This document shows, in pieces, positions 6,291 through 49,400 of a stretch of DNA of 64,000 nt; within the stretch, counting starts at the first letter, position 1; each line of letters starts with the position of its first letter. Origin of the DNA: Leucoraja ocellata. Taxonomy: Eukaryota. Made by a program: the position numbers and the translations under genes. The notes under the pieces were generated by a model. It saw nothing but the letters and a program-made list of their open reading frames with translations. It did no database searches and was not told the DNA's origin. Location of the stretch: positions 868,001 through 932,000 of the forward strand of contig JAWMAR010000562.1 in the NCBI GenBank assembly GCA_036785375.1. The letters run 5' to 3'.

Positions 6291-6299
6291 ATTCAACTC

Positions 6300-7830: not shown

Positions 7831-7933
7831 TTGGCCTATTTCCTTCGCTCCATAGATGCTGCCGCACCTGCTGAGTTTCTCCAGCATTTTTGTCTACCTT
7901 CGATTTTCCAGCATCTGCAGTTCCTTCTTAACC
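7831..7933 (+). mobile_element. Penelope terminal-repeat 3' fragment with TSD ATAATGCTAAA
   Basis: Direct repeat at 7820-7830 and 7934-7944. The sequence is homologous to the reverse complement of 51180-51277. Confidence 0.8.
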
Positions 7934-8379: not shown

Positions 8380-8948
8380 GAGGATTGAGGGGTTGATTAG
8401 CGTGGGCAGTTGTGGGGCGGAAAGAGAGTGGGGAGGATGAGAGGGGCGTGGGGCGGGGGGGGGGGGGGGACAAGGTTCAGGAGTTGGGATACTGATGGTG
8501 GTGGAGCACTAACTGAGGGATGCGGATGGAGAATAGGGTGGGGATAAGGATAGGATGATGAGGTTAGTGATGGGGTGGGACACAGAGATGGGGGCGGGAG
8601 GGTGAATAATGAGGTCTGGGAGTTCAGATAGTGATGAGATGGGCACAAGGTGAGGGGGGATGAGACTGGAGAATGGGATAGTGATGAGGGTGGGGAGCAC
8701 GGCACAAACAAGGGTGAATGATGAGGCTTGGGGGTTGGGAAAGTGACCGGGTGGGCACCAACAGGCAGATAGGACTCAAGAATAGGGTGGGGATGAGGGT
8801 GGGATGATGAGAGTGATGGAGTGGGACCCAGAGCTGGGGGGATGAAGATGGAGAATAGGGTGTGGATTAGGATAGTGATCGGGTGGGACACAGAGCTGGG
8901 AGATTGAGGTGGAGAATAAGTCGGAGATGAGGGTAGCAAGATGAGATG
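8380..8948 (+). repeat. G/A-rich degenerate minisatellite
   Basis: Recurring blocks 'gatggagaatagggtg', 'gggtgggacacagag' and 'gatgatgag'. Similar sequence continues at 9250-9370 and 9849-9960. Confidence 0.7.
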
Positions 8949-8949
8949 A

Positions 8950-9245
8950 GTTTAGTTTAGTTTGGTTTAGAGATACAGCGCGGGCTGACCAGTGATCCCT
9001 GCACATTAACACTATCCTACACACTAGATGCTATTTTTACATTTTCTTTTAAAGCCAATTAACCTACAAATCTGTGCGTCTTTGGATTGTGGGAGGAAAG
9101 TGAAGGTTTTGGGAAAAACCCCACATAGGTCACGGGGAGAACGTACAAACTCCGTACATGCAGCCCCCGTAGTCGGGATCAAACCCGGATCTACGGCGCT
9201 GCATTCATTGTAAGGCAGCAACTCTACCGCTGCACCCATGTGCCA
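8950..9245 (-). mobile_element. V-SINE (HE1-like)
   Basis: (tttag)n tail, V-domain and tRNA-like head on the minus strand. Confidence 0.88.
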
Positions 9246-9370
9246 TAACCGTGAGTGATGGGGTGTGACGCAGGGCCGGGGGAATGAGGGTGAGCAGCAT
9301 TGGGATGGGGGTGGGGTAGATAATGCAGTGCAGATTGAGGACTGGGAGTCAGACTGTGCTGAGGGCAGGC

Positions 9371-9848
9371 TAGGGTTGCCAACATTGGGCTAATTGGTTT
9401 GTCCCATACGGGACCGCCCTTGTCCCGTATTTGGCTGCTACTACTCGGGTCCAGGAGACTGTCGGGTCGGAGGGCCGCGTCTGGCCCCGCCTCACCCATT
9501 CCGACGTAGTGCAGCCCATGGAGTGCAGCAGCAGCGCCTCGCCCGTGGCCCCGTCGGTCGGCAGGCCGGCCAGCTGTCCGACCTTCGGACCTTCGCTTAC
9601 CGCCAACACCACCGCCCCTCCTTCGTCGGTTCATGAGTTGGATGGTATGCTGGACTTTGCACGCGACATCGCGCGGGTCAAAACTCCTCAGCTGGCCCGC
9701 CGGCTGGGCTTTGTGTGCAGTCCAGCACCCGGGCCAACTCATCATTCTCCCAGCCACGGCCAAGTCGGTCAACGAATTGCCGTCGGGAATTTGTCCCTTG
9801 TTTTGACCTTTTCTTCCTTATTTGGGAGTGAGAAGGTTGGCAACCCTA
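9371..9848. mobile_element. Non-autonomous hAT-type DNA transposon (copy 54091-54568)
   Basis: 13-bp TIRs TAGGGTTGCCAAC / GTTGGCAACCCTA, an 8-bp TSD GGGCAGGC/GGGCAGGG (7/8 match), and a CpG-rich interior. Confidence 0.85.
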
Positions 9849-10585
9849 GGGCAGGGAGTGAGGCAGATAGTAGAATGGAGGATGAGCATAGGTTGGGAGA
9901 TGTTGAGGGTGAAGGTCGGGCATTGACAACAGCGGTATGTCAGTGATGGAGAGAAATGGGGGTCACCATGCAACGTTATGTCTGGCATGTGGCTGGAGGG
10001 AAATTGATGTCCCATATTCTTCGACAGATGCCAGGTCAAAGACAGGCCACTAACTAACAGTGATGTTGGCTTCAGTCCACTGTTTAAAACCCGATTCACT
10101 GTTCTCCTGGGCTATGTACGAGCAGCAGAATTTTACACAAGGTTGTCAAAGGAACACCATCTAACATCACTCAGACTGCTGAGTAGCCTTTGTATTGCTG
10201 TGCACCGCATACACAGAAGTGTTGGGAACAACATTCTCCTCTGTTGTCTGAAAATGATCCTCAAAACCCTGTGCTAAGTGGTCAGAAAGTGGTGGTCAAC
10301 AAACCACCTAATAATATGCAATGTGGCAGTTCAGATGACTGGTTATATTAGCACAAGATTTTCAGGTTATTATTAGGGTGAGTTGAGTGGGGACTAGATT
10401 AATTTTTCACTCACTACTTATGGTTAATATTCATGGACTAGTCAAGTTAAAAGAGCCATTTAATGTAACGATCTGTATTTGAGCACCAGGGTATTATGAT
10501 ACCTAGGTCTGCTGAGGTTTCTGCAAGTAATGCTTAAGAAATGTTTTCGTGTAGAACTGCATTACCATCCAGTACACGATGCCAT

Positions 10586-10599
10586 GTTGCCATGGTTAC
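10586..10599 (-). promoter_or_regulatory. RFX X-box motif (copy 55315-55328)
   Basis: Minus strand GTAACCATGGCAAC matches GTNRCC-N2-RGYAAC exactly. It lies in unique sequence that is nearly invariant between the two copies. Confidence 0.45.
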
Positions 10600-12065
10600 T
10601 CGACTCAAAGCTGCTCTCAGTGTGTGTGAAGATAAGGCCAGTTTCTATCTGACCTTACTGATACTCTAGTGCAACAAGGGAAAATTACACATCCCCACAA
10701 GCAGTGCTGTTAATATGTCTTCTTACCAGAGCCAATCTATCAGAGCTTGCCCACCGACAGGGCCCAAAACCCAGCTATCATTTAGCTGCAAACCTCAGGT
10801 CATGTTCATGTTGCTGCCATCATAAAGCTGAGAAATTCCACTCACGAAGCTTGATGGATTATTGGGCAGCGATTAGGATGTTGAATACTGAAGAGTTTTT
10901 TAATTTTGTTTTTAGCATGAAGCATCCAGAGGGATTTTAGCAGCTGCGTTTGTAATTGGTCACAAATCAGATTAATGATTCAACATTGAGTACGTGCATT
11001 TTAGGTCTGAATTCCAGCCTGATCTTCAAGCATTTAACTTAAAAACACAGCCACTGAATGTAAGCAACCTTAATACTCATGGTCATTGATACAATCCACG
11101 AATAATGTAAACGGCACATCTATCTGAAAGACATGGATATGCTGAGTTCAAGTAAATCACTTCTCCACTCTTAAAAAATCCTTGCTTTTACAGGATTTTA
11201 TCTGAACAAATTGCATAAGGGAATTGTGAACTTTCTCCCTGTTTATTTTTAATCAACCTGTTTCATCTTTCTTTTTTAAGAAAGCCTACTCCTTCTCTCC
11301 ATAGATGCTGCCTCACCCGCTGAGTCAGTTGCCTGAGTTTCTCCGGCAATTTCTGTCTACTTTCGAGAGTTCAAGGCCAACATGTTCCTGTTAGAGTGAA
11401 GGGTATAGCTGGAATAATTCAGAATATTGAGGTTACATTCAAGAAAAAGGAGGGAGTATAGGTGATGTAAGAGTACACCTCAGAGAGAAACCAGGGGGGG
11501 GGGGGGGGGGGGGGGGGGCTAAATGAGGACATGAGATAGCTTTTGCAGATCAGGCAAAGAGAATAATAAAAATTGTGTGAAGCATATGAAGATCATAAAG
11601 GTAACTTGGAAAATAATAGGTCCCCTTTAAAGATTTGATCCCGGTTTGATCCTGACCTTGGCTAATGACCAAGTTGGTTTCCTCTGGGTGCTCCAGTTTC
11701 CTCCCACATCTCAAAGACGTGCAGGTTTGTAGGTTAATTTCCCTCTGCAAATTGGCCCTAGTGTGTAGGGAGTGGGAGCTATAACACCAGGATAAGCGCT
11801 CAACTAAGAAAACCAAGCTCCAAGCCAAGGTACAATCTACACTGAATATTCGAACATGCTAAGGGCGATAACTAACTTCATATGCAGTAAACAGCTACCT
11901 ACATGTTTACAAGCTCATTAAAAACAAACTGACCTTGTAGATATCAAGTGGGCATCTCCCTTCACTGGTGTTTCGTTGAGTTAGGCCCACAACACCTCGG
12001 GAAGGATAACTAGTTAGTGTCAACATGATCTATTGGAAGTGAAATGTTTTATAATAGCATGTGGA

Positions 12066-12435
12066 GAGGATAGACAGAGTTGAATTGGACAAGCTTTTCC
12101 CTTTGAGAATAGGGAATAGGGAAGATTCAAACAAGAGGACATGACTTCAGAATTAAGGGACAGAAGTTTAGGGGTAATACGAGGGGGAACTTCTTTACTC
12201 AGAGAGTGGTAGCGGTGTGGAATGAGCTTCCAGTGGAAGTGGTGGAGGCAGGTTCATTGGTATCATTTAAGAATAAATTGGATAGGCATATGGATGAGAA
12301 GGGAATGGAGGGTTATGGTATGAGTGCAGGCAGGTGGGACTAAGGGGAAAAAAAGTTGTTCGGCACGGACTTGTAGGGCCGAGATGGCCTGTTTCCGTGC
12401 TGTAATTGTTATATGGTTATATGTCATATGGTTAT
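12066..12435 (+). mobile_element. 5'-truncated CR1/HER1-like LINE present only in copy 1
   Basis: Encodes RGH..GNFFTQRVVAVWNELP and ends in an (atatggtt)-type tail. TSD atgtgga/atgtgaa. Empty site 'gcatgtggacatttatag' at ~56781. Confidence 0.9.
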
Positions 12436-12769
12436 ATGTGAACATTTATAGTTATGAACACAGATACACTCATTTTGAATGTCACATTTTGTTGAGGAGA
12501 TGTATGTATTTAATATGATAGGGTGTATATCCACCAGCTGTCTGAAGGTTAGTAATTTGCTGTGACTTCAGAAATAGCCATATACAGATATCCCTCGTAG
12601 GAGTGGAGTGGTATCCATTATTGCCGATAGACAGCTCTAACTGAATAAGGGAGGGGTAAATATGTACAGTATTGGAAAAGCAACCACTAAATATTGACAC
12701 ACAATAAACAGGAATTGTCAAAAAACACATAATACTTAAAACATTGTAAATACATTTAAAAAAGTCAAA

Positions 12770-12893
12770 TAGACACAACATGCTGCAGTAACTCAGCAGG
12801 ACAGGCAACATCTTTAGAGAGAAGGAATGGGTAATGTTTCGGGTTGTGTCTATCTTCGGGTGAAAACCAGCATCTGCAGCTCGTTCCTTCACA
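12770..12893. mobile_element. Collapsed inverted pair of Penelope terminal-repeat remnants
   Basis: Minus arm 'agacacaacatgctgcagtaactcagc...gtttcggg' is fused to plus arm 'tgtgtctatcttc...cagcatctgcag'. Confidence 0.65.
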
Positions 12894-14259
12894 GGGGATT
12901 AAAGAATCCACATCTACAGACAAAAAGCTACACATGATACGGTGGCATAAATGGCACAAATATGATACATGGGGGAACTTAATGATTATGACCATTTAAA
13001 GGAGAGGTTCTTATTTATATGGAATGCTTGGATTGATCCTTCAAAGTCACCAATCAGCAGAACAAAATGCCGTGATCCAAGTGTGGAAGGAAGCAACTTT
13101 ATTAGTAAATGCAGGCTTGGCCACTTATGTGACACTATCTGGACCATCTGGAAAGATCATTGGAATGTTAAAAGCATACTTTAACCCAGCAGCAAATAAA
13201 ACCACATACTGGCCATCCCTGCGTTATAAACACCAGATTTAAGGACATCGTGACATACAATCAAACTCCCATAATATTCAAAACTCATACCAATGCAGAA
13301 CAAGTTCCCTTCTCACTCCCCATTTGATAATGATTATTCTTTCTTATCAGTTGCATGTGCTTTTGATACCATTCATTACAACACATGGAGGCATGGTAAC
13401 ATATTGAGTGATTTGTGTATATTTCCAACGCATGGAGAAAATCAAGTTATAGACGGATGTCTGTTCGTTACCAGGGGATGGCCTGTGTACACTGGTGCTT
13501 CTGTTAACGGCAATAAAGACATTTCATTTTCTTTTTATGTCGGGAGATGCTGCTGGGCTGAGATAAGATATAAATAACTGTGTGTTAAAGTTGTCTTTCG
13601 ATACAATAACTGTTAATGCAATCACTTGCCTGTTTGACATTTAGAAAGTCTGTGAACAATGACATGTGCATTGCGAGCTAAACTGCTAAATTGGAGGAGA
13701 TAAGAGGTTGTGGACAACTGTTCGCAGGTTGGGTATCTTCAGGAAGAACAGGGAGGCAAATGAGGGAGTGGAGAAACAGAAACAATTGAATGCAGACTTT
13801 TTGTTTGTAGAACAAGATAATTGTGGGATGTCAGACTGACGACCGGGAATTTAGACTGAATGTAATCAGGACATTTTCTGCCACATTTGAGAAGACAGAC
13901 CATGATCAAGAGAAAATAGCAAGAAATCGTTTAAATGTAACTTGTCCCTAGTGTGTGTAGGATAGTGTTAATGTGCGAGTATCGCTGGTCGGTGCAGGAA
14001 CACAGATTCCATTGCTAAGAGATAACTTAACACCATTGTTAATACTTGTATATCTATCTACTTCGTGCAGATGGATTAACACATCAGCAAAGAGAAATAG
14101 ATCTTGCAGAGGTGGGCTGAGGTTTTCACCTAACGTGTCCTAAATTGACCGCTTACAATTCAGTGTCATAATTATCAGGTGTGAAAGCTCCAGAAGCAGA
14201 TGTTATACCAACTAAAGATCTTATACCAACTAAAGTCTTCAAAGAAGGGACTCGCTTTA

Positions 14260-14594
14260 AGGGCCTGTCCCACTGTACGAGGTAATTCAAGAGTTCTCCC
14301 GAGTTTCTCCTAATTCAAACTCGGAGAATTACGGTAATAGCCGCTCGTAGGTACTCGGGGCTCTCGTGGACATTTTTCAACATGTTGAACATGTTGAACA
14401 TGTTGAAAAATCTTCACAAGTCCTCACGAGCTTACCGCGTTTCCTGAATACCTGCCGTTAGCGTTACGAGCCGCTGAGAGACGTCCCAAGCTCCAACGTA
14501 CCTGCTACGTACATTCTACGTACTTACCACGAGTTTGATTTTTGTTTAAACTGGGGAGAGCTCTTGGATTACCTCGTACAGTGGGACAGGCCCT
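14260..14594. mobile_element. PIF/Harbinger-type MITE (copy 58689-59028, right TIR clipped)
   Basis: ~47-bp TIRs starting AGGGCCTGTCCCACTGTACGAGGTAAT, with TTA TSD at 14257-14259 and 14595-14597. Confidence 0.9.
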
Positions 14595-14597
14595 TTA

Positions 14598-14918
14598 GTT
14601 TAGTTTAGTTTTAGAGATACAGCATGGAAACAGGGCCTTCGGCCCACCAAGTCCGCACCGACCAGCGATCCCCGCACATTAACACTACCCTACCCACACA
14701 TGGGACAATTTTACATTTTTTTAATATACCAAGCCAATTTATCTACAAACCTGTACGTCTTTGGAGTGTGGGAGGAAACCGAAGATCTCGGAGAAAACCC
14801 ACGCGGGACATGGGAAGAACGTACAAACTCCGTACAGACCGCGCCCATAACCAGGATCAAACCCGGGTCCACGGCATTTTAAGACAGGAGGTCTACCGCT
14901 ACACCACCGTGCTGCCCC
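14598..14918 (-). mobile_element. V-SINE (HE1-like)
   Basis: Head, V-domain and (tttag)n tail on the minus strand. Confidence 0.88.
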
Positions 14919-15619
14919 AAATGTTGAATGGGAAACTTACAGAGCAATGTCAGGTGCTAACGAGCAGAATACAAGCACCTCAGGACTTCAAGGACATCAC
15001 CATTATCTGCCTATGCAAGCATATGGGACATTGACAAGTTTGTGACAATCACAGATGAAACTCTTTATTTCCGACTGCTGGTAAAACCTGTGCCAGAGTC
15101 CTGTCAAACGCACTGTTCATTCACTCAGCTTGAACAGGGCTTACTCTCAGAGAGCCAATGTGGTTTTGTGAAGAGTGTGGAAGAGGAAACATGTCTTTGA
15201 AGCAAGGCAACTCCACGAGAAGTGCCAAGAACAAGACTGCAGCTTGTCCACCACCTTTTTGGATCTCATTAAAGCTTTAGCCACTGCTTGCCATGAAGGT
15301 CTTTGAAAAATTATGGCAGAGGAGGGTTACCCCAAAAATGTTCAGCACAATTCTCCGACAACTTCATGATGGTATAATGGCCAGGGAAGTGGATGACGGA
15401 GGGACATTAAACCAATTCCTTCTCACCAATGGTGTGAAGCAAAGCCTTGTGCTGGGCATCACAATGCTTGCTACAATATTCTCTACAATGCAACCTGATA
15501 CTTACCCTAATATGAAGATGGAATCATTCTGAGATACTCGACTGCTGGTTCTCCGAGGAGACTCTCAGCCAAAAGGAAATATAAGAAACATCCTTAAGTG
15601 ACGTCCCCTTTGTTGATGA

Positions 15620-16305
15620 CACGGTGGCACAGTGGTGCAGCGGTGGAGCTACTGCCTTACAGCGCTAGAGACCAGGGTTTAATCCTAACTACGGGTGCTG
15701 TCTGTACAGAGTTTGTACGTTCTTCCCGTGAACTGCTTTGTTTTCTCAGAAATCTTCGGTTTCCTCCCACATTCCAAAACCGTACAGGTTTGTACGTTAA
15801 TTGTACGTTAAAGATTGTTAAGGGCGTGGACACGCTAGAGGCAGGAAACATGTTCCCGATGTTGGGGGAGTCCAGAACCAGGGGCCAAAGTTTAGGAATA
15901 AGGAGTAAGCCATTTAGAACGGAGAAGAGGAAACACTTTTTCTCACAGAGAGTGGTGAGTCTGTGGAATTATCTGCCTCAGAGGGCGGTGGAGGCCGGTT
16001 CTCTGGATGCTTTCAAGAGAGAGCTAGATAGGGCTCTTAAAAATAGCGGAGTCAGTGGATATGGGGAGAAGGCAGGAACGGGGTACTGATTGGGGATGAT
16101 CAGCCATGATCACATTGAATGGCGGCGCTGGCTCGAAGGGCCGAATGGCCTACTCCAGCACCTATTGTCTATTGTCTAGTTGGCTTGGTTACAAATGTCA
16201 AATTGTCTCTAATGTGTGTAGGATAGTGTTATTGTGCGGGGATCGTTGGTCAGTGCGGACTCAGTGGGCCGAAGGGCCTGTTTCCGCGCTGTATCACTAA
16301 ACTAA
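15620..16305 (+). mobile_element. V-SINE split by a CR1 3' fragment (~15810-16177)
   Basis: ORF 15598-16089 is a SINE-CR1 chimera. The SINE resumes at 'ttggcttgg..aattgtc' after the ctattgt tail. Confidence 0.85.
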
Positions 16306-16698
16306 GACTGAAAAGACTGCACATGCAGTGCAAGTTCAGAAGCTGAGGAGCCACTAGACTTCGACAAATGCTCCTGTGCCTGGGATAACTTTCGCCTCAC
16401 AATTAGCACAAAAAAAACTAAATTTATGCAGCCCCCCGCAGCTGCACGCAGAACCAAAGATTCTTGTGAATGGTCAGAAGCTTCCAATATTGGACTCGTT
16501 TACTTATCTTGGCAGCACTCTCTTTCGAGATCAGTCAACACTGATGCTAAAGACAAGCTCTTTTTCAGGAAGACTAAGACATAACGTATGGGAGTAAAGA
16601 GGAATGAGCCTAAAGACCAAACTGAAAGTGCATCTTGCTGTTATTATCCCGACCTAACTATGTTTCAGTGTGTTCAGCAGACACGCCAAATAGCCTTA

Positions 16699-17028
16699 AG
16701 GGCCTGTCCCACTTTCCCGAGTTATTCACGAATTCTCCTGAGTTTTCAAACTCGCAGAATGTTCGTAACGAGTCTGCAGGAGGCTGTACGAGTTCGTGGA
16801 TGTATCGTAGCGCCAGCCGTAGGTACTCGGGGCATCAGGGAAGTCGGGACGTTTTTTCCAGCCTGATGAAAAATGTCCACGAGTAAAAAAATATCCCCGA
16901 GTACCTACCGCTGCAATAACGAGCCGCTACGATATATCCACGGATTCCAACGGCCTCGTTACGAACATTCTGCGAGTTTGAAAACTAGGGAGAATTTGTG
17001 AATAACTTGGGAAAGCGGGGCAGGCCCT
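16699..17028. mobile_element. PIF/Harbinger-type MITE, second subfamily (copy 61129-61458)
   Basis: TIR AGGGCCTGTCCCACTTTCCCGAGTTATTCAC with an imperfect right TIR. TTA TSD at 16696-16698 and 17029-17031. Confidence 0.88.
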
Positions 17029-17171
17029 TTAACCACTTCCACAAGACCCGCCTGCACAGAATACCTCATGTCAAATGGCAAGACTTCATACAGATTCTGC
17101 CCAATAAAACCTTATCAGCATCTACACATTGCTGAAAGAATGACAGATCAGGTGGGAGGATGCCAGAATGG

Positions 17172-17435
17172 CACAGAACACCATAGGAGATCCTTTTTCC
17201 CTGTGGCTATCAAACTGTGCAGCTCCTCCCCAACTTTGCACATCCCTCATCCTGGACTTTTCCACTCGATAATTTCATTCCATGTTTGTGCAATATTACA
17301 CATGTGCTATGCAATAACTGGCCACTTTAATGTCATTAGTCTTATAATGCAGGTGACACAACCTTTGTAACTGAATCTTTGGACTGTCGGCAGACCAGTC
17401 TCCCACTGGGATAAATAAATCTGTATCGTATCGTA
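17172..17435 (+). mobile_element. Rex1/Babar-like LINE 3' fragment
   Basis: Reads TEHHRRSFFPVAIKL and ends in 'ataaataaatctgtatcgtatcgta'. Confidence 0.6.
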
Positions 17436-18599
17436 GGGCTATGTCAGAAGAACGTCGGATCTCCGATGCCAAAACAGCCACTTTATTGGGAGCTGACTGA
17501 GGGCAAACAAGCAAGTAGTGGATGGAGAAAGAGATTCAAAGACTCTGTTCAAACATCCGTGAAGTGTTTTGACTTGACACGTTAAATGTTGTCAAGCAAT
17601 CCTTTGAGGGCGCTATTTGTATCAGAATTTCTGTTTAAAGGCAAAGCGTACATTTTATTGGACAGTAAAAAGGTTGCAGGAACCGCAATAGAACAGAAAC
17701 AGGGCACTGGATCAAAGGGGATTGTTGTTGTCAGTCAACTGGAAACCAAAGCAACACATTTCCTCCACTTGTGTACTAATTAATGAGCTGCAGAAGTGCC
17801 TTCGCTGGGTTTTCTCCAAGGGGCAAAATGGATCAAAATACCAAACAATGAGGCAAATGCAATGGATCTGCAATTACCAACTTTCAGTCAGTTCAGGTCA
17901 TCAAAGAGGCTCTGAAGTGTTACAGCAAGACCCAAATGGGCAGGAGTCAAGTCAAGTCAAGTCAAGTCAAGAGAGTTTATTGTCATGTGTCCCAGATAAG
18001 ACAATGAAATTCTTGCTTGCAATGAGATTGTGCTGAGAAATTCCAACCATGAGGTTGAAATTTCTCAGAACGAAGCAATGAAGTGGCAATCGACGAAGTG
18101 AAAATTGGAGCATTGGTGGTATTTCCTTTGAGACAACAGAGCAAAACTGTAAATGAACCTGTTACTCAAGATGCATTCTCGATCAAATAAGGTGAATGAT
18201 GGAGATGACTCCACAATGTAAAGGTACTATCATGGGAAAGCAAGCAGGACACAAGAGAAAAACAAGTCTACTAAGTGGAAAAGAACACCTCCTTGCAAAA
18301 ATGAGGAGAATTGTAGTGATCAGATTTCACCTTGCCTTAAAGATAACAGGGCATCGTGTTGAAATATCACATTCATCTAATATTGGTTAGCTTCTGAAAA
18401 ATAGGTCTCTCAAAACATTAAAGATTACTGGAAGAAGGAGTCAGAATCTTGAGTTTGAACGGAGGCAGACAATATCTTCAGCGTGTTTCCAACATTTTAA
18501 TGTATATTTTGTGCACCAATACAGAAAATGATGTAATTGAATGTACTTAGAAACTTATCAGTAATTTGATGTATTCTGAAGGAAGATATGACATTGGGA

Positions 18600-19135
18600 A
18601 AGGCTGCATTTGGAATATTGTGAGCAACTTTGGATACCATATCTGCGGAAGGTTGTGTTGGCTCTGGAGAGGGTCCAGGAATGAGTAGGTTAACATATGA
18701 TGAGCGTTTGTCGGCCCTGGGCCTGTACTCCCTTGAGTTTAGAAGAATGAGAGGGAACCTCATTGAATCATGGAATAGTGATAGGCTTGGATAAAGTGGA
18801 TGTGGAGAGGATATTTCCACTAGCAGGAGAGTCTAGGACTAGATGTCATAGCATCAGAATTAAAGGACATTCTTTTAGGGAGGAGATGAGGAGAAATGTC
18901 TTTATTCAGAGGGTGGTGAATCTGGAATTCTTTGCCACAGAAGGCCATGGAGGCCAAGTCAGTGGATATTTTTAAGGCAGAGATAGATAGATTCTTGATT
19001 AGTACGGGTATCAGTGGTTATGGGGAGAAGGGGTTAGAAGGGAGAGATAAATCAGCCATGATCGAATGGCGGAGTAGATTTGATGGGCCGAATGGCCTAA
19101 TTCTACTCGATCACTTATGACCTTATGAACTTATG
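18600..19135 (+). mobile_element. CR1 3' fragment (copy ~63030-63565)
   Basis: Reads GLDKVDVERIFPLAGESRTR..QRVVNL, with a ttatga tail. Confidence 0.85.
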
Positions 19136-27170: not shown

Positions 27171-28900
27171 GGTAAACACAAAATGCTGGAGTAACTCAGC
27201 GGGTCAGGCAGCATCACTGGAGCAAAGGAATGGGTGACGCTTTGGGTCGAGACCGTTCTTCTGTATGGTGTCAGATAAAACCAGAAAATGGTGGAAATAC
27301 AGTTAGCGTCTGTGGAGAAAGAAACAGAGTTTAACATTTTTGGTCGATGGCCCTTCATCAGAGCTGGTAAAAATAGAAACCCGCATTGTTAAGGGAGGGA
27401 TGGATATTTACGAAGGAATGGAAATGTTAATAATTACTGTAGGTGGAAACCAAGTGTAACTTAAGACACACATGGTGTTGCTGGCAGTGAGAGAGTGGGG
27501 AAAGCCTGTTAATTGCAACTGAGCAGTCTGGAGGAGATGTAGATAGGGATCTTAAAGTTATGGGGATATGGGGAGAAGGCAGGAACGGGGTACTGGTTGT
27601 GGATGATCAGCCATGATCACATTGAATGGCGGTGCTGGCTCGAAGGGTCGAATGGCCGACTCCTGCCATTGTCTATTGTCTAAATCGACAGAGATGAATG
27701 AGTATGGAGGAGAGACAAAAAAAGTACATGGATTATGTGATAAAATGTGTGCATTTGCTGCAGTCTGATATGAAGGAATGGTGGAATTCTCAAGCTTTGA
27801 AAATAGAAAAAATTGAATTTACATTGCATGTCAGTGGCCTTTCATTAGCCCTCTTTTGTCTTCTGGATCAGAAGTGGCCAGTTCCCTCACAAACAGGAAT
27901 GGCTGGCTATCTGAAATGGAAGAGTCCTGAGGACAGTATTATATTTCACCAGACCATAACAATGTGTCAATTGAGCTGGCGTTAGACTTCATTGGCAGAG
28001 TGCAGGAGGTCAAAGGCTTTATGACATTTCCTTTTTCATAACTATCAAAACAATTCCACAGTCAAATGACACATAGGATCTGGTTCAGAAATGTAAAAAG
28101 AAACCAATATTATATAAACACAATCATTAATAACACACCAGTTTACAAAAGATTAATATGAATTGCTCTTGTCCATCATTATAACAGTTAGGACACTTAG
28201 CTCATTTGTTTTAAACAGGAAAACTAATGTTATTAATTTAATGGACAAAGTAATTAGGCTCATCCATATTAACATTTAGCATTCAGAGGTTTACATTTTT
28301 TCAATGCCCTTTGGGTTTTTTGCACAGTTAGGTTTGCAATCCAGTAGAAAACTATTCACTGGTAAATTAAAAGCAAATTGCAACAAAGCTATCAAACACT
28401 TTCCACTCTCAAGGTGGCAGTACCTCTTGCATCGTAATAGTTATCTTGTGTAAGCTAATTAGAAAATAGCAAGAATACAAGGGGGGTATTAAGGGAGGCT
28501 CACTGATTTTCATGTGCACTGTGTTTTACTTTCCAGACCGTTGTCAGAGTTTCAACACTTAGAAACATAGAAACATAGAAACATAGAAAGTAGGTGCGAG
28601 AGTAGACCACCAGGTCCGTCGAGCCCGCACCGCCATTCGCTCATGGCTGAACACTAAACAGACACACTTACCCACAAACAGTAGACACAAGACACAGAAC
28701 ACAAGACACTACCCTCCCCTTTATACCGCTATCACCCCTCTCCACCCCAAGAACCTCGTGATCTCCTGGGGGAGGCAAAAAAACGGATAAAAACCCAGGT
28801 CCAATTCGGGAAAAAAAAATGGGAAATTCCTCTCCGACCCCAATCCAGGCGATCGACACTTGTCCAGGAGATCACTCAGGTCTTACTATACTAACCATAC

Positions 28901-31792
28901 CTAGGTCCATATCCCTGCCCTCTCCCCGTAGCCCCTTATCCCCTTGGCAGCTAAAAAACCATCTATTTTAGTCTTAAATATATTTAAAGTTTCTGCTTCC
29001 ACTGCTCCCTGGGGCAGTGAATTCCATAAATTAACCACCCTCTGGGTGAAGAAGTTCTTCCTCATCTCAGTTTTAAAAGAGCCCCCCCTTATTCTGCAAC
29101 TATGTCCCTTAGTTCTAGTTTCCCCGATCATTGGGAACATCCTCGGTGCATCCACCCGATCAAGGCCCCTCACGATCTTATATGTTTCAATGAGATCGCC
29201 TCTCATTCTTCTAAACTCCAAAGAGTAGAGTTCCAGCCTACTTAACCTTTCCTCATATGTCAATCCCCTCATTGCAGGAATTAATCTTGTAAACCTTCGC
29301 TGCACTGCCTCCAGGGCTAGTACATCCTTTCTTAAGTATGGACCACAGAACTGTACACAGTATTCCAAATGTGGTCTCACTAATACTGTGTACAGCTGCA
29401 GCAAGACCTCCGTGTTTTTATACTCAATCCCCCTAGCAATAAAGGCCAAAACTCCATTGGCCTTCCTGATTGCTTGCTGCACCTGCATACTAACTTTCAG
29501 TGATTCATGTACTAACACCCCTAGATCCCTTTGCGTTGCATTACAATGCAGCTCCTCCTCATTTAGAAAATAACTTGCCCTATCATTTTTTTTCCCAAAG
29601 TGAATGACTTCACATTTATTAGTATTAAATTTCATCTGCCAAGTTGTTGCCCACTCACCTAGCTTATCTATATCCTTTTGCAGACTCTTCCTATCCTCCT
29701 CATCCCCTACTTTTCCTCCCATTTTTGTATCGTCCGCAAATTTTGATATATTACACTTGGTTCCCTCCTCCAAATCATTTATATAAATTGTGAACAACTG
29801 GGGTCCCAGCACCGACCCTTGCGGAACCCCGCTAGTTACCGGTTGCCATCCCGAGTATGAACCATTTATCCCCACTCTCTGCTTCCTATTTGTTAGCCAA
29901 TCCTCTACCCATGCTAATATATTACCCCCAATCCCATAATTTTTTATTTTTAGCAATAGTCTCTTATGTGGCACCTTGTCAAAAGCCTTTTGGAAGTCCA
30001 AGTATACCACATCCACCGGTTCCCCTTTATCCACCCGGGTTGTTACTTCCTCAAAGAATTCGAGCAGATTCGTTAAACAGGACTTCCCCTTCACAAAACC
30101 ATGCTGGTTCTGTCCGATGAAGTCATGTTTATCCAAGTGCCCCGTTAGTGTTTCTTTAATAATTGTCTCTAACATTTTACCCACCACCGATGTTAGACTA
30201 ACCGGTCTATAGTTACCCGCCTTCTGTTTACTTCCTTTTTTAAATATAGGTGTTACATTGGCCATTTTCCAATCCACTGGGACCGTTCCTGCCTCCAGGG
30301 AGTTTTGGAAAATTATCACCAATGCATCCACAATCCCCACCGCTATCTCCCTCAAGACCCTTGGATGTAATCCATCAGGCCCAGGGGATTTATCCTCCTT
30401 CAGTCTCATTAATTTCCCTAATACCACCTCCTTGGTGATCTTAATAGTATTTAGCTCCTCCATTCCTACCGCCCCCTGTTTATCCAGCGTTGGAATATTT
30501 TTTGTGTCTTCTATGGTGAAGACTGATACAAAATACTCGTTTAATGCCTTTGCCATTTCCATGTTCCCCACCAACAACTCTCCAGTCTCACCCTCCAATG
30601 GACCAACGTTCACCTTAGCCACCCTTTTTCTTTTTATATAGCTGTAAAAACTCTTACTATTAGTTTTTATGTTGTTCGCTAAATTCCTTTCATAGTCTAT
30701 TTTCCCCGTCTTAATTAATCTCTTAGTTATTTTTTGCTGACCTTTAAATGCTTCCCAATCCTCTACCCTCCCACTATCTCTGGCTACCTTATATGCCCTT
30801 GCCTTCAGCCGAATACTATCCTTTATAGTTTTACTGAGCCATGGCTGACTGTTCTTACCCTTACCCCTTTTTTTCTTCATAGGAATAAATTTTTCTTGAA
30901 GGTTATACAGTATACCCTTAAACGTACACCACTGCTCATGTACCGTCTTATTCTTGAGTCTGCTATCCCAGTCAACTTTGATCAGCTCAGTCCTCATACC
31001 TTCATAATCCCCCTTATTTAGACTAAGCACCCTAGCCTGAGTTTCAACCTGCTCCCCTTCTATTTGAATATGGAATTCGACCATATTGTGGTCACTTGTT
31101 CCCAACGAGTCCCTAACTATGACATTTTTAATTAATCCTGCTTCATTACACAGGACCAGATCCAAGATTGCCTCCCCCCTTGTCGGTTCTGTGACATACT
31201 GTTCTAGGAACCCGTCTCTAATACATTCTATAAACTCTTCCTCTAGTCTACCCTGCCCAGTTTGGCTTGCCCAATTAATATGAAAATTGAAGTCCCCCAT
31301 GATTACAGCAGTTCCCTTTTTACATGCGTCAACTATTTGCAGATTTATGTTCTGACTAACAGCATCACAGCTATTTGGAGGTCTATAAATTACACCCACT
31401 AGTGTTTTTTTCCCCTTATTATTCTCTATCTGTACCCAAGCTGTTTCACTATCCTGATCCTTCAACGCAATATCCTTCCTCTCTATTGCCGTTATTCCCT
31501 CCCTTATTAAAAGGGCCACCCCTCCTCCCTTTCTTTCCTGTCTATCTTTCCTAATTGTCGAGTACCCCTCTATATTTAACTCCCAGTCCTGATCCCCTTG
31601 CAGCCATGTCTCCGTAATGGCCACGATATCATAACTATATATACTTAATTGCACCGTTAATTCATTTATCTTATTACGAATACTCCGTGCATTTAGATAA
31701 AGCACTTTCAGATGATTTTTACTACCCTTCCTTTCCGTTTTTGCCCCTTTTACATCTAAAGCTTTATCTTCACACATTCTGTCTCCTGTCAC
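28901..31792 (-). CDS. CR1 ORF2: APE endonuclease plus reverse transcriptase, 963 aa, uninterrupted
   Basis: APE motifs LYLNARS, ITETW, GDFN, SDHN. RT motifs QHGF, YLDFQKAFD, GVPQGSVLGP, FADD. The true start codon is uncertain. Confidence 0.95.
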   Translation of the reverse strand: MTGDRMCEDKALDVKGAKTERKGSKNHLKVLYLNARSIRNKINELTVQLSIYSYDIVAITETWLQGDQDWELNIEGYSTIRKDRQERKGGGVALLIREGITAIERKDIALKDQDSETAWVQIENNKGKKTLVGVIYRPPNSCDAVSQNINLQIVDACKKGTAVIMGDFNFHINWASQTGQGRLEEEFIECIRDGFLEQYVTEPTRGEAILDLVLCNEAGLIKNVIVRDSLGTSDHNMVEFHIQIEGEQVETQARVLSLNKGDYEGMRTELIKVDWDSRLKNKTVHEQWCTFKGILYNLQEKFIPMKKKRGKGKNSQPWLSKTIKDSIRLKARAYKVARDSGRVEDWEAFKGQQKITKRLIKTGKIDYERNLANNIKTNSKSFYSYIKRKRVAKVNVGPLEGETGELLVGNMEMAKALNEYFVSVFTIEDTKNIPTLDKQGAVGMEELNTIKITKEVVLGKLMRLKEDKSPGPDGLHPRVLREIAVGIVDALVIIFQNSLEAGTVPVDWKMANVTPIFKKGSKQKAGNYRPVSLTSVVGKMLETIIKETLTGHLDKHDFIGQNQHGFVKGKSCLTNLLEFFEEVTTRVDKGEPVDVVYLDFQKAFDKVPHKRLLLKIKNYGIGGNILAWVEDWLTNRKQRVGINGSYSGWQPVTSGVPQGSVLGPQLFTIYINDLEEGTKCNISKFADDTKMGGKVGDEEDRKSLQKDIDKLGEWATTWQMKFNTNKCEVIHFGKKNDRASYFLNEEELHCNATQRDLGVLVHESLKVSMQVQQAIRKANGVLAFIARGIEYKNTEVLLQLYTVLVRPHLEYCVQFCGPYLRKDVLALEAVQRRFTRLIPAMRGLTYEERLSRLELYSLEFRRMRGDLIETYKIVRGLDRVDAPRMFPMIGETRTKGHSCRIRGGSFKTEMRKNFFTQRVVNLWNSLPQGAVEAETLNIFKTKIDGFLAAKGIRGYGERAGIWT

Positions 31793-31881
31793 ATTTTGAC
31801 TTTCCGCTTCCCCACTGATACCCTGCTCTATTTCCTCTACCCCTGCCGTTATTACCCCCCTTGATACCTCCCCCCCGCTAC

Positions 31882-32312
31882 TTAGTTTAAAGACCTCTCT
31901 ACTGCCCTAGTTATATGATTTGCCAGGACCCCAGTCCCAGCACCGTTCAGGTGAAGTCCGTCCTTACAGAACAGATCCCCCCTGTCCCAGTACTGGTGCC
32001 AGTGGCCCAAGAAACCAAACCCATTATTCCCACACCAGTCTTTGAGCCACGCATTTAGCTTTTTAATTTTATGTACCCTCGCCGATTTGGCCCGTGGCTC
32101 AGGTAGCAATCCGGAGATCAGTACCCTTGAGGTTCTGCTTTTTAATTTATTCCCTAACTGCTCAAACTCCTTCAGCAGATCCTCCTTCCTCGTCCTTCCT
32201 ATGTCATTGGTCCCCACATGGACCACGACCACTGGATCCTCCCCCTCCCTCTGCAAATTTCTCTCCAGCATCGCAGAAATATCCTTAACCCTAGCACCGG
32301 GTAGGCAACACA
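31882..32312 (-). CDS. CR1 ORF1 C-terminal SGNH/GDSL esterase domain (5'-truncated)
   Basis: CLPGARVKDI, VVHVGTND, DGLHLN. Confidence 0.9.
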
Positions 32313-32969
32313 GCCTACAATGTTACACAACACTTCCCCAATGTTAAGTGACACATGCAAGTGTTTGAATCTTCTATGGCCTGGCCAATTCTTATCTCCA
32401 CAAACGAGGAGAATATTTGCATTTACGGGTGCTGTCGGTATGGAGTTTATACGTTCACCCGTTTTCTCTAGGTGCTCCGCTTTTCTCCCACATTCCAAAG
32501 ACGTACAGGTTTGTAGGGTAGTTGAGGCCAGTTCATTGGCTATATTTAAGAGGAAGTTAGATGTGGCCCTTGTGGCTAAGGGGATCAGGTGGTATGGAGA
32601 GAAGGCAGGTACGGGATACTGAGTTGGATGATCAGCCATGATCATATTGAATGGCGGTGCAGGCTCGAAGGGCCGAATGGCCTACTCCTGCACCTAATTT
32701 CTATGTTTCTATGTTTCTAAGTTTGTGCAATGAGCTGCCGGAGGAAGTAGTTGAGGCAGGTATTATTGTAATGTTTAAAAAACATTTAGTCAGGTGCGTG
32801 GATAGGATAGGTTTGGAGGGATATGGACCAAACATAGGACTAGTGTTGATGGGGCATGTTGGTCGTTGTGGGCAGGTTGGGTCGAAGGGGCTGTTTCCTG
32901 TTTCTACATTGTATGACTCTATGACTGAGACCTGCCCTTCCCTGCCAGTCAATTAACAACCTACCAATG

Positions 32970-43400: not shown

Positions 43401-46400
43401 CTATTGGCTTTGAATCTTGGCTTTGAATAGCTGATTAAGATATCTTTTAATTTACTTGCGGAAAACAGATTCTTCTTTCTATTAACATAACTGGACTGAA
43501 AGAGTCACAGAGTCATAGATTCCTACGTAGTGAAACAGGCCCTTCAGCCTAACTTGCCCATACCGTCCAACATGTTCCAGTTACACTAGTCCCACCTGCC
43601 CATATCCCTCCAAACCTGTCCTGGTCCATATCCCTCCAAACCTGTCCTATCCATTTACCTGTCTAACTGCTTCTTACATGTTAGGATAGTCCCAGCCTCA
43701 ACTACCTCGTCTGGCAGCTTGTTCGATACACCCACAACCAGATACCTATTAAATCTTTTCCCCTTCTTCTTAAATTGATGTCCTCTGGTCCTTGATTCAA
43801 AGATCCTGGGCAAGAGACCCTGTGCATTTACACAATTTATTCCTCTCATGATTTTATACACCTCTATAAGATCACCCCTCATCCTCATGCACTCCAGGGA
43901 ACAGAGTCCCAGCCTACTCAACTCCATATAGCTGAGACCCTCTAGTCTTGGCAACATCTTCATAAATCTTCTCTGTACCCTTTTCAGCTTGACAGCATCT
44001 TTCCTATAACATGGTGCCCAGAACTGAACACAATACTCGAAACGCAGTCTCACTGCAGTGTCAGTTGCTTTCCTACTTTCATTACTGTAGGCAAAGAATT
44101 AGTGTGTGGGAAATGAACAGTGAATGGACCAGTTGCATTGTTTTTGAAGGCACTGTTGGGCTTGATGGACTGAATAGCCTAACTGCGTGGAATTAACCTC
44201 TAATTCTGTGATTCTGTGAGTACGTTTTCAGTGGGTAAGTGGCGGCACGTAGGCGCAGCGTTAGAGTTGCTGACTTACAGCTCTTGCAGTGCCAGAGACC
44301 CGGGTTTCATCCCGACTACAGGGGCTGTCTGTATGGAGTTTGTACGTTCTCCCCGTGACCGCGTGGGCTTTCTCCGCGATCTTCTGTTTCCTCACACTCT
44401 CCAAACACATACAGGTTTGTAGGTTGTGACTTGGTATAAGTGTCAATTGTCCCTAGAGTGTGTAGGGTTGTGTTCATTAGCTTGGTAAGATTTTAGAGTC
44501 CATTATCAAGGATGAAGTTATGGAGTACTTGGAAGTTCACAATATAATAGGGCAAAGTCAGCAAGGCTTTGTCAAGGGGAGGTCTTGACTGACAAATTTG
44601 CAGGAATTCTTTGGAGAAGTAAATAGCAGGACAGACAAGGGAGAGTCAGTATATGTTGTTTACCCAGATTTTCAGAAAGCCTTTGATAAGGTGCCACATG
44701 GGAGGCTGCTAAGGAAGATGAGAGCCCATGGTATCATAGATCTGGTATTAGCAGAGACATCAGGATGGCAGAAGGCAAAGTGTGGCTTTGGCTGCCAGTG
44801 ACCAGCAGAGTTCCACAAGGCTCGGTGCTGGGACACTGCTCTTCACGTTGTACATTTATAATTTCGATGAGGGGATTGAAGGCTTTGTGGCCAAGTTTGT
44901 GGCTAATACGAAAAAAGATGCAGGGGCAAGTAGTGTAGAGAAAGCAGGGATTTTGCAGAAGGACTTGGATAGGTTGAGAGGGTGGGCAGAGAAGTGGCAG
45001 GTGGAACATAGTGTAGCAAAGTCATGCGCTTTGGTAGTAGTAATAAAGGTGTAGATTATTTTCTTAACTGGTGCAGGATTCCCAAAAAGTTAAACTGCAA
45101 GTCGAATCAGTAGTAAAGAAAGCAAACGCAATGCTAACATTTATTTCGAGAGGGCTTGTATATAAAAACAGGGATGAAATGCTGAGGCTCTATAAGGCGC
45201 TGTCAGGCCGCATTTGGAATATTGCAAGCAATTTTGGGCACTATATCTGAGGAAGGATATGCTGGCTCTGGAGAGTGATCCCAGGAATGAGTAGGTTAAC
45301 CTATGATGAGTGTTTGTCAGCACTGGGCCTCTACTCGCTGGAGTCTAGTGGAATGAGGGGGGACCTCATTGAAACGTACAGAATAATGACAGGCTTGGAT
45401 AGTGAATGTGGAGAGGATGTTTTCACTAGAGGGGGAGTCTAGGACTAGAGGTCATAGCCTCAGAATTAAAGGTCGATATTTCAGGAAGAGGATGAGGAGG
45501 AATTTCTTTAGTCAGAGGGTGGTGACTCTGTGGAATTCTTTGCCACAGAAGACTGTGGAGGCAAAGTCAATGGATCTATTTAAGGCAGAGAGAGATAGAT
45601 TCTTGATTTGTACGAGTTTCAGAGGTTATGGGGAGGAGGCAGGAGAATGGGGTTAGGAGGGAGAGATAGGTCATTCATGATTGAATGGCAGAGTAGACTT
45701 GATGGGCCGAACGGCCTAATTCTTCTCCTATCACTTATGATCTTATGAATCTATGGGGATCGCTGGTTGGTGCAGACTCAGTGGGCCAACGTGCCTGTTT
45801 CCGTTCAGTATCCTGAAACTAAACTAAACTAAAACTGCTGGGTTTCAATGAAAGATCATTGATCTGAAACATTGAATCTGTTTTCCTCTGTCCATGGTCG
45901 CTACCTGACTTATTGAGGATTTGTATTGTGCTTTCAGATACACAGCATCTGATATCTTGTGTTGTTGCACCTCCTCATCTTTGAAGCTGCTTTATTAAAT
46001 CTCCTTTTTACCTTCCAATGCGGAGAGGCCAGATTGGGGGATGTGCGTAGGTTATAATAATAATAATAATACATTTTATTTATGGGCGCCTTTCAAGAGT
46101 CTCAAGGACACCTTACAAAAAATTAGCAGGTAGAGGAAAAACATGTAAGGGGAATGAAATAAATAGTAGAGACATGACTAGTACACAAAGTAAAGACAGA
46201 ATTCAATACAAAACACAATATGAGGCAATTAATGCACAGATGAAAAGGGAGGGGGACGTGGGGCTAAGGATAGGCAGAGGTGAAGAGATGGGTCTTGAGG
46301 CGGGACTGGAAGATGGTGAGGGACACGGAATTGCGGATCAGTTGGGGGAGGCAGTTCCAGAGCCTGGGAGCTGCCCTGGAGAAGGCTCTGTCCCCAAAAC

Positions 46401-49400
46401 TGCGGAGGTTGGACTGGTGGATGGAGAGGAGACCGGCTGATATGGATCTGAGGGACCGTGAGGGTTGGTAGGGGGAGAGGAGAGGTTAGGCATTGGTCCT
46501 TTTTTATATGCCCTTAAAGCCGAGAATCCGATATGTTTTATTAGCCTCGTCATTAACCTGGCCAGTCACCTTTACAGATTGGTGAACATCACCAGATCTC
46601 TCTCTTTCAACAAGCCCTGTAAAATTATACCATTTATATCTTCATAAATTGAACTTTTCTTCTTCTGCCGATCATTAGATCGTATTCATAAAGGTTGAGT
46701 AGATCACCACAATCTATGTTTTTTTTTGTTTTAAATTCGAGAACCATAAAGGCTGGCATTGTTGAACCAATTAACGCAAACTGTATTCAAGCATAATCAC
46801 GATTTATTTATTTAAGGCAACATTTTGAATTAAGCTGTATAAATATATCCCGTGTGACAGGAGATGAAAAAGGCTCATCAGGTTTTCTTGAAACTTCACT
46901 GAGCAACATGATTAATGTGAAGAAGTTAATTATAATTCAATAGAACCATAAATATAAGTCAATGCTCCAGTAATTTAAGACTCAATGCTTGTCAATGAAA
47001 GGAGATGATGCAGGTACAATTCAGAACAGCTGATCCCAAATAAAAAGATTCTAATTAATAATGACCTACTACTTAAGGTGACAATTACTTTACAAATTCT
47101 TAAGGTGTTTGGAATTCTGCAAATGATTCTAAACTCTGCTCCTGGCCTCAATGGAATTGGTGAATCAATGAGATTTAACCTCAGAGCCAGACCCAATGTT
47201 CGCACATGGGAGGATCACTTTGATCGGACTAATTCCATGACCCTGCCAGTGGGGATAACTGACCTTTGACCTGGACAGGAAAGTTGTGTGGCCCATAACC
47301 GCATATTTTCATACGTATCTGGGTCTGTTAGCTGGTAATCGATGTGAGCGGAGAGATATTACTACGCTAACGTAGTTATATAAGATGATATCTCATGACT
47401 TGGGCAGCACCTTTGCCGACTGTTCATCGATCGATTGTCTTGCTGAGGTGCTAAGTATTGAATCTGCAACCTCCATCTGCTGGAGGTGAATTTACACAGA
47501 GGTTGGAATTGGAGCATCCATTGTAAATTGTATTGTAGCCATGTACTTTCATACACCTTTCAATATTGCAAGTCATATACCAATTTGTTGCCTCCCACAG
47601 TGTTTTCTACTCTCTCCATTAGACAAGGCTTTATTTCTAATTGATGTCTGAAGAATGGTCTCGACCCGAAACGTTACCTATTCCTTTTTTCCAGAGATGC
47701 TGTCTGACTGGTTGAGTTACTCCAGGTTTTTGTGTCTTTCTTTCTTGATGGAGCTGGCCACTGCCATTCAGTGCTGTCCACAGTCCGTAAACTCCGGCCT
47801 TTTCAAGGGTCACGTTCAGAGTGACTATCTCTGACTCTCTGTGCACTTCAGCTGGTTAGCTGGGTCTGAACATCGACTAAGTTTCAACAGGTAGTGTGAA
47901 GACCCCAGCCTGACATGGTCAACAGTTTGGCCTTGACTGAAGGCAAAGCTATGGGACGAGCATTGGCTTTCTGCCAAAGCAGCCATAGATTCCCTTATTC
48001 CCATACAAACGTTATTCCCTTATCATCTATCTAAACACTGTAAATGGCCCGATTGTAATTATGTATTGTCTTTCCGCTGACTGGATAGCACGCAACACTT
48101 GGGCTTGTACACTCTGGAGTTTAGAAGGGGATCTCATTGAAACATGTAAGATTGTTAAGGGTTTTGACACGCTAGAGGCAGGAAACATGTTCCCGATGTT
48201 GGGGGAGTCCAGAACTAGGGGCCACAGTTTAAGAATAAGGAGTAAGCCATTTAGAACGGAGACGAGGAAACACTTTTTCTCACAGAGAGTGGTGAGTCTG
48301 TGGAATTCTCTGCCTCAGAGGGCCGTGGAGGCGGGTTCTCTGGATGCTTTCAAGAGAGAGTTAGATAGGGCTCTTAAAAATAGCAGTCAGGGGATATGGG
48401 GGAGAGGGCAGGAACGGGGTACTGATTGGGGATGATCAGCCATGATCACATTGAATGGCGGTGCTGGCTCGAAGGGCCGAATGGCCTACTCCTGCACCTA
48501 TTGTCTATTGTCTATTGCAACAAAAAGCTTTTCACTGTATCTCGGTACACATGACAATAAACTAAACTGAACTGAACTGAAAGACGCTAACAATTTTAAA
48601 TAATTTTGACTTTTGGAGACATCTAAAAATATATATTTTTTTTTTTCCCCCATTTCAAGTCCGTGGGCAGCTGCCGATTGTTTAAAATTTTTTTATTTTA
48701 AATGGAATAAATTAATTAAACAAAATCAATTAAACACATGAAATAATTTGAAAATAATTAAAAATATAAAATTAAACCAAAATAATAAAAAAAGGAAAAT
48801 ATCTTTCCCTTTGCCTCCTGAGCAGGTGTAAAATATCAATTTATTCAGCAGGATTTTGGATCTCCTGCTAGGTCTGACATGCAAAACATGAAAGGAAATT
48901 CTCTTAACATTCTCTTAATGCTGGAATGTCACAGCGAGGCTAAACCTACTGCTGGGCTCCATGTGGAGTCCAACAAAGGAATGTGGTGCCTGTGAACCTG
49001 TCAGCAAGGTCACAGTGAGAGCGTTGAGCATTTTCCCCAGTTCACATGGTCACCATAAACACCAAGGTTCAGCTCATTCTGAACTGAGGGTGGCACGGTA
49101 GCGCAGCGGTAGAGTTGCTGCCTTACAGCGCTGGAGACCCGGGTTCGACCCTGACTACGGGTGCTGTCTGTGCGGAGTTTGTACGTTCTCTCTGTGACCT
49201 GCGTGGGTTTTCTCTGAGATCTTTACTCCCACACTCCAAAGACGTACAGGTTTGTAGGTTAAATGGCTTGGTGTAAAAGCAAAATGATCCCTAGTGTGTG
49301 TAGGATAGTGTTCTTCTTATCGAGTCCACACACACAAGATTAGAAGTTGTTCAGCCAGAGCTGAACACACTTCTCGGCATCTGCACACAATGGTGTCTGT

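Follow-up and report, generated by a model that had tools for sequence, protein, structure and literature searches.

A predicted three-way-junction RNA domain with U-rich loops in the 3′UTR of a Leucoraja ocellata CR1 element resembles ENE-type stability elements

A CR1 element with a long 3′UTR

The window, by which we mean the whole stretch of 64,000 nucleotides of Leucoraja ocellata DNA analysed here (contig JAWMAR010000562.1, positions 868,001 to 932,000), carries on its minus strand a LINE of the CR1 clade, whose features are collected in Table 1 and numbered from the first letter of the window. The CR1 label is based on an ORF2 with endonuclease and reverse transcriptase (RT), an esterase-type ORF1, the conserved 3′ motif, the microsatellite tail and 5′ truncation, that is, on features and not on a tree. 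This copy is 5′-truncated near 32330, and its ORF2 ends with a stop codon at 28903-28901.

Table 1. Positions in the window of the CR1 element, of the parts of its predicted RNA domain and of the truncation hotspot
Feature	Position	Strand	Basis
CR1 ORF1, 3′ part, esterase-like	31882..32322	-	146-aa frame; Pfam Lipase_GDSL_2 E 1e-12
CR1 ORF2, endonuclease and reverse transcriptase	28901..31906	-	1001 codons open; Pfam RVT_1 E 4e-33, Exo_endo_phos E 4e-11
3′UTR, 312 nt	28589..28900	-	tail begins at UTR nt 313
P1 closing stem, 5′ strand	28864..28875, reaching about 28885	-	inverted repeat, folding
P2 hairpin GAUC(G)CC / GGGGUC, bulged G	28836..28854	-	stem invariant between lineages
P3 lower stem, 5′ strand	28829..28835; partner 28775-28770	-	compensatory changes relative to bird-like loci
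Lower U-rich internal loop, 5′ side AAUUUC	28823..28828; opposite U tract and G 28783-28776	-	MFE, typical copies
Middle helix, 5′ strand; damaged in the window copy	28819..28822; partner 28788-28784	-	intact in 80/87 copies
Upper U-rich internal loop, 5′ side	28811..28819; opposite U5 28793-28789	-	MFE, typical copies
Apical helix and loop	28794..28810	-	pair probability
Arm 3′ strands: U5, middle helix, U tract, P3	28770..28793	-	sequence, folding
P1 closing stem, 3′ strand	28758..28769, reaching about 28749	-	inverted repeat, folding
5′ truncation hotspot in family copies	28748..28817	-	11 of 99 sampled copies; genome-wide step
UAUAAA, possible variant poly(A) signal	28720..28725	-	sequence; RNA reads continue across
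GU-rich tract	28649..28709	-	sequence
Terminal CR1 motif, common to other CR1 families; presumed RT recognition hairpin	28590..28650	-	role as given in the accessible text of PMC4316615
(TTTCTATG)n microsatellite tail	28561..28589	-	sequence

The preliminary description of this locus had singled out an unusually long 3′UTR, and the comparison within the window bears this out, since the tail begins at UTR nt 313 here, whereas of 18 other CR1 ends 7 are not scorable and the other 11 have it at nt 50-78, which amounts to about 235 nt of extra sequence. The perfect 12-bp inverted repeat reported in the extra sequence lies exactly at 28758-28769 / 28864-28875 and encloses 94 nt, and the inner motifs and the GU-rich tract described with it are likewise found in the sequence. 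With small bulges the repeat lengthens to about 17-19 bp. However, the window holds 11 perfect 12-bp inverted repeats with arms no more than 150 nt apart, compared with 0.8 in 20 shuffles, so that the inverted repeat by itself is unremarkable. The window also includes a large direct duplication (about 340-19100 and about 43600-63500), with the same CR1 ends and inverted repeats recurring at an offset of 43.3-44.4 kb.

The domain closed by the repeat is situated 170 nt from the tail, and downstream of it the longest A run inside the element is AAA. The UAUAAA and the 60-nt GU-rich tract, both upstream of the RT start motif, together resemble a bipartite poly(A) signal.

Predicted fold of the domain

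Typical copies of the element are predicted to fold into a three-way junction, at which an arm bearing two symmetric U-rich internal loops meets a closing stem (P1) and an invariant GAUC/GGUC hairpin (P2). In intact copies the predicted order is the 12-bp P1, a 9-nt linker, the P2 hairpin and then the arm, in which P3 is followed by a U-rich loop, a helix of 4-6 bp, a second U-rich loop and the apical helix. A C-G pair closes the upper loop, and below each of the two loops there are G-C pairs no more than two steps away. The mean pair probabilities over 62 intact copies are 0.84 for P2, 0.83 for P3, 0.91-0.95 for the middle helix and 0.89 for the apical helix. One typical copy, L055, folds at a z-score of -3.2 and has the two U-rich internal loops, an arrangement seen in none of 500 shuffles, 29 of which have one such loop.

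The window copy itself is atypical: its MFE structure differs from that of the family and is without the two-loop layout. It folds modestly (z -2.0 for the domain, z +0.66 for the whole 401 nt), because one strand of the middle helix is lost. This bears on the two pairings proposed from the window sequence. The pairing of GAGG with CCUC is supported, having a probability of 0.84 in L055 and two compensatory changes, whereas that of GGGUC with GACCU must be abandoned, as its probability is 0.01 in L055 and reaches 0.48 in the damaged window copy only; the conserved partner of GGUC is GAUC.

A young family in the genome

The domain belongs to a CR1 family of about 1,700-1,800 copies, which we consider young because the sampled copies are 96-99.5% identical to the window copy. 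A search of the genome (3.44 Gb) returned 1165 candidates, of which the 40 scored are 99-100% identical, and a pattern for the hairpin has 1807 matches genome-wide compared with 183 for a control pattern. As an unbiased sample, not chosen for the domain, we used the 100 places at the head of the list of matches to a terminal probe, and the whole domain is present in 87 of them. Among these 87 copies the 5′ strand of the middle helix is kept in 80 and the full 3′ strand in 67, both strands being kept in 62. The broken middle helix of the window type occurs in 13 of 61 copies in a set biased toward the window copy, and in 0 of 87 in the unbiased set. Half of the sampled copies (50/99) reach beyond 1.5 kb, which is long for CR1. 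Other CR1 families in the window thrive without the domain.

Relatives outside the family

A metagenome scan gave eight matches, four of which are the module (L034, L035, L037 and L041, three of them from one accession series), one is doubtful (L038) and three are bacterial chance matches. We call the four contigs bird-like, since L034 holds a separate CR1 end of a type that we take to be avian. Their version of the module has P2 and P3 in common with the window family and a single U-rich loop, and 2 of 500 shuffles have such a loop. A covariance model built from the four bird-like contigs alone finds the window copy as its best match in the 64 kb (34.1 bits, E 4.2e-7; next match E 0.17), and gives 41.5 bits for L055, while none of 15 chance-match loci scores better than E 0.9. 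With a sequence-only model the window copy reaches 19.8 bits (E 5e-5), so that sequence and pairing both contribute to the match. The suggestion of a structured module, made initially from the window alone, thus gains support from similar sequence and fold in distant vertebrate DNA.

In an alignment fitted to the structure, 11 of 30 pairs are doubly changed and 92.6% of the cells pair, and the pair changes in P1 and the middle helix come from this fitted alignment. In a plain alignment 2 of 15 core pairs are doubly changed, and P3 shows two compensatory changes and one mismatch relative to the bird-like loci; RNAalifold run on the plain alignment did not recover the predicted fold. The double changes fall on one branch between two lineages, which is short of proving covariation. 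In P2 all six pairs are invariant in seven sequences, including a G-U pair and the bulged G, and the U tracts are kept while the helix sequences change between lineages.

At the bird-like loci no CR1 ORF2 precedes the module, and no CR1 tail follows it within the contigs. It sits in a shared multi-copy repeat of about 1 kb or more, with copies that are 77-95% alike and short frames that match nothing clearly in Pfam. The module is followed by tandem units, each about 175 nt long and decaying, in which the U-loop arm is kept and P2 lost.

Signs of a tie between the module and CR1 come from two further sequences. The first, L214 (G000:C25:4520549-4520939, minus), is a decayed match in the genome of the window (18 bits, E 0.003, a score biased by its having been found via a related pattern) located shortly after an old CR1 ORF2 end, and is probably the relic of a single-loop module; used as a query in that genome, it found no copy besides itself. 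The second is the CR1-2_XT consensus, which as printed in the supplement of PMC4316615 contains a 14-nt string identical to the 3′ strand of P3 and P1 in the bird-like loci. Through this remnant, the amphibian link that had been suggested for the motifs of the domain holds in part. From the alignment that accompanies PMC4316615, as far as it is accessible, its authors removed the ORF2/UTR boundary region, where the domain lies.

A possible distant version of the module at L038:680-850 has no match to the structure model and a sequence-only E of 0.31, which is not significant. This stretch precedes a tail that is presumably of a reptile-type CR1. Within the genome of the window, the bird-type pattern had 0 matches in other families (a pattern search, by which weak families may be missed), bird-like DNA used as a query had 0 matches, and a gapped pattern had 79, the 30 inspected being an unrelated repeat or chance. 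In viral contigs, 3 and 6 pattern matches were judged to be chance, with the downstream parts absent, and there were 0 matches for two fuller patterns and no ORF2 relative. Six pattern matches in prokaryote genomes were rejected, none being scored by the covariance model. L072-L100 and sequence on many small contigs belong to an unrelated AT-rich repeat family, which is common on small contigs and may be a satellite.

Truncations within the domain

The truncation sample comprises 99 copies (the 100 copies minus one that ends at the probe). In 49 of them truncation occurs within 1.5 kb, in 11 cases inside the hotspot given in Table 1. The truncation rate of 1.7 per kb in the hotspot compares with 0.47 overall, and with 0.09 immediately downstream and 0 immediately upstream. 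In a scan test p is 0.010 under a constant rate and 0.11 if the rate of the busiest stretch of ORF2 is assumed, and with the domain limits of the preliminary description there are 10 truncations against 4.4 expected (p 0.016). Genome-wide, four 23-mers placed successively upstream were counted 1818, 1779, 1665 and 1657 times, with one mismatch allowed and the sampled copies included. This corresponds to losses of 2.1% over 90 nt, 6.4% over 50 nt in the 3′ half of the domain and 0.5% over the next 73 nt. Within the sample the four 23-mers were detected in 99/99, 96/97, 87/89 and 85/87 copies, so that mutation noise of 1-2% cannot account for the step.

Reverse transcriptase travels 3′ to 5′ on the RNA, and stops at the entry of the domain therefore fit a stable fold. 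The pile-up of truncations in the 3′ half of the domain is consistent with a fold that stalls the enzyme, and would have left in the genome a trace of the RNA's likely folding in vivo. For some of the truncations, microhomology joining at U runs is a rival explanation. The 11 truncations have 11 separate positions across 70 nt, and such scattered stops argue against a single cleavage site. Three copies truncated in the domain (L154, L147 and L150) have a 5′ junction that shows short duplications or template jumps.

RNA reads across the 3′UTR

Three raw RNA runs, from a species labelled organism A that may differ from that of the window, span the UTR completely on both strands, for the most part in its intact form, and much of this coverage may come from host read-through. 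The bulk coverage continues across UAUAAA, and no sense-strand poly(A) end after it (28725-28720) is found among the loose ends listed for the three runs, to which 32 further loose ends add; the poly(T) loose ends derive from the opposite strand. An internal poly(A) site at UAUAAA is unsupported by the reads. No pile of molecule ends inside the domain is present among those listed for the three runs, and we infer that the template-switch ends at G runs in single-cell reads are artefacts. Single-cell reads also pile up antisense beside U tracts, with poly(T) ends (L055:1565-1610; window 28946-28976), as oligo-dT priming on the opposite, A-rich strand would be expected to produce.

Comparison with known stability elements

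According to the accessible parts of PMC7583470 and PMC13541005, ENEs and dENEs are defined by symmetric U-rich loops flanked by short G-C helices, single in the one and double in the other. The prediction for the CR1 domain has symmetric U-rich loops, adjoining G-C pairs and two loops split by a short duplex, so that its layout resembles that of a dENE, a likeness that stops short of established membership. ORF2 runs uninterrupted for 3 kb, in agreement with the intronless transcripts that carry ENEs and dENEs. The one-loop form of the bird-like loci and the two-loop form of the window family match the split into single and double ENEs, and the presence of the module also apart from any CR1 tail, within decaying tandem units, is as expected of a portable element. 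Regarding placement relative to a poly(A) site, the domain is followed by UAUAAA and the GU tract within its 170 nt to the tail, with no sense poly(A) end among those listed. The accessible text of PMC13541005, the review that is our one source for this feature, assigns to dENEs a conserved adenosine triad and a 3′-end pocket motif, and at this site the CR1 domain shows just AA ahead of the lower U tract, with a G behind the tract opposite. A strictly conserved sequence, as in P2 and the GGAA start, is not characteristic of ENEs, and in the window family the 5′ side of the lower loop has no more than three U.

With the dENEs of plant and fungal transposons, such as that of rice hAT TWIFB1 (as presented in the accessible parts of PMC7583470 and PMC13541005), the domain shares two U-rich loops with a short duplex between them, in the 3′ part of a transposon RNA, as well as a simple, symmetric upper loop and a lower loop with a neighbouring bulge. 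In contrast, its CR1 host is a vertebrate non-LTR element, its arm rises from a three-way junction that includes an invariant hairpin, and it is known here from a predicted fold. The single-domain ENE of KSHV PAN RNA differs in that its poly(A) site is defined and lies just downstream, and in that its triplex has been solved, P2 and the junction being extra in the CR1 domain. The 3′ strand of the upper loop may be similar to that of PAN. The MALAT1/MEN-beta blunt triple helix is, like the CR1 domain, found in vertebrates and has a U-rich internal loop, but the CR1 domain has neither a downstream genomic A-rich tract nor a tRNA-like cleavage element reported by Rfam, and a blunt triplex of the MALAT1 type is excluded by the longest downstream A run of three. 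The terminal CR1 hairpin described in the accessible text of PMC4316615 lies in the same UTR (28590-28650) and is a separate element, downstream of the domain.

The ENE of the Arabidopsis Copia93/Evade element comes close in setting, since it has four U tracts that form two internal loops, lies in an unusually long post-ORF spacer and belongs to an active retrotransposon; as in Evade, the CR1 domain sits in the 3′UTR of an intronless retroelement. Loss of the Evade ENE lowers RNA stability and insertions, as stated in the accessible part of PMC12501189, from which this comparison is taken. However, Evade is an LTR element with a tested function, whereas CR1 is a LINE with a microsatellite end.

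Proposed role and alternatives

On balance we favour the reading of the domain as an ENE-like stability element: its loops would hold the poly(A) tail within a triple helix, which would slow the decay of the intronless LINE RNA. The tail would have to come from downstream, because the element has no A tract of its own, and the RNA may be polyadenylated at the UAUAAA/GU site or in flanking DNA. The tail would then fold back into one or both loops as U-A-U triples, slowed deadenylation would provide more RNA and more ORF proteins, and these in turn more copies. The invariant P2 hairpin likely packs on the triplex or binds a protein. The cost would be that reverse transcriptase likely stalls on entering the fold, giving truncations. 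Weighing against this reading are the double changes confined to one branch, the lack of a sense poly(A) end among those listed, the sequence invariance of P2, the mere three U on the 5′ side of the lower loop, the copies whose middle helix is broken, and the success of other CR1 families that do without the domain.

The main rival to a poly(A) clamp, which we consider unlikely though deserving of attention, is a protein-binding platform for nuclear export, RNP assembly with ORF1p or translation control, with the U loops as flexible hinges. The conservation of P2 and the junction in sequence, with all six P2 pairs invariant, suggests recognition or tertiary contacts, and the lack of a poly(A) end among those listed in the RNA reads also speaks for such a platform. 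Nevertheless, it leaves the opposed U tracts on both sides of the two loops, and the doubling of the loop, unexplained, and the decayed second copies in the bird-like loci retain the U-loop arm and lose P2.

A broader model, which we regard as doubtful, places the domain in an ancient vertebrate class of poly(A) clamps on a three-way junction, which certain CR1 lineages would carry, from cartilaginous fish through to tetrapods, in forms with one loop, two loops or tandem units, and which could move into other repeats. Here, with the UAUAAA/GU site, it would give rise to two RNAs, a clamped, long-lived mRNA for proteins that ends without the RT start hairpin, and a longer read-through template.

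It is improbable that the domain is a passenger, that is, an old captured sequence without present use and with an incidental fold. Two lineages only are well supported, the window copy itself is broken and the copies within a young family say little about selection, all of which such a passenger would allow; yet sequence and fold are common to distant vertebrate DNA (E 4e-7), the helices have been rewritten with pairing kept, and the loop is doubled in an active family. Still less probable is a part of the ORF2p recognition site for starting target-primed reverse transcription. The domain does lie 170 nt from the tail in a LINE clade of the stringent type (as characterised in the accessible text of PMC3747384), and the probable relic L214 follows an older CR1 ORF2 end, but the terminal motif common to other CR1 families is intact and separate, those families are without the domain, and within the contigs no CR1 tail comes after the bird-like copies. 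A self-cleaving ribozyme or processing site is very improbable: despite a compact multi-helix fold, invariant junction bases and a possible pairing of the 5′ linker with the apical loop (a pseudoknot candidate that is weak, at -4 to -9 kcal/mol, and inconsistent in register), there is no Rfam ribozyme match even at E 10 or E 5, the truncations do not mark one cut site, no end pile-up is listed inside the domain, and a cut would separate the ORFs from the RT start site.

Of the three functions first proposed, a stability element is therefore the best fit, with the RT-binding domain and the ribozyme disfavoured. The accompanying view that the domain belongs to no named family is right in that Rfam has no match over it, either in the window or in six loci, although the module may be tied to a named kind, the ENE-like elements.

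Novelty and significance

ENEs have been described from viruses, from MALAT1/MEN-beta, from plant, fungal and slime-mold transposons and from stickleback retroviruses (accessible parts of PMC7583470), and the accessible parts of PMC7583470 and PMC13541005 name no LINE among the carriers. The literature, covered mostly through papers open without subscription, yielded no description of the module, nor of an ENE or triple helix in CR1 or a LINE. The rice hAT TWIFB1 dENE was reportedly described by Tycowski, Shu and Steitz in 2016, whose list is said to hold about 200 ENEs and may bear on novelty. We lean towards regarding the domain as a variant of the ENE-like layout that would be new for vertebrate non-LTR elements.

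Should poly(A) indeed be clamped by the module, vertebrate non-LTR elements would possess a defence against decay made of RNA alone, and a tail would still be needed by CR1 RNAs even though their DNA copies are without poly(A). If the model of two RNAs holds, translation and templating would be kept apart in a manner new for a LINE. The module is also a compact candidate stabiliser for synthetic RNAs, and it offers a handle on how CR1 transcripts end and survive, with a natural series of single versus double loops.
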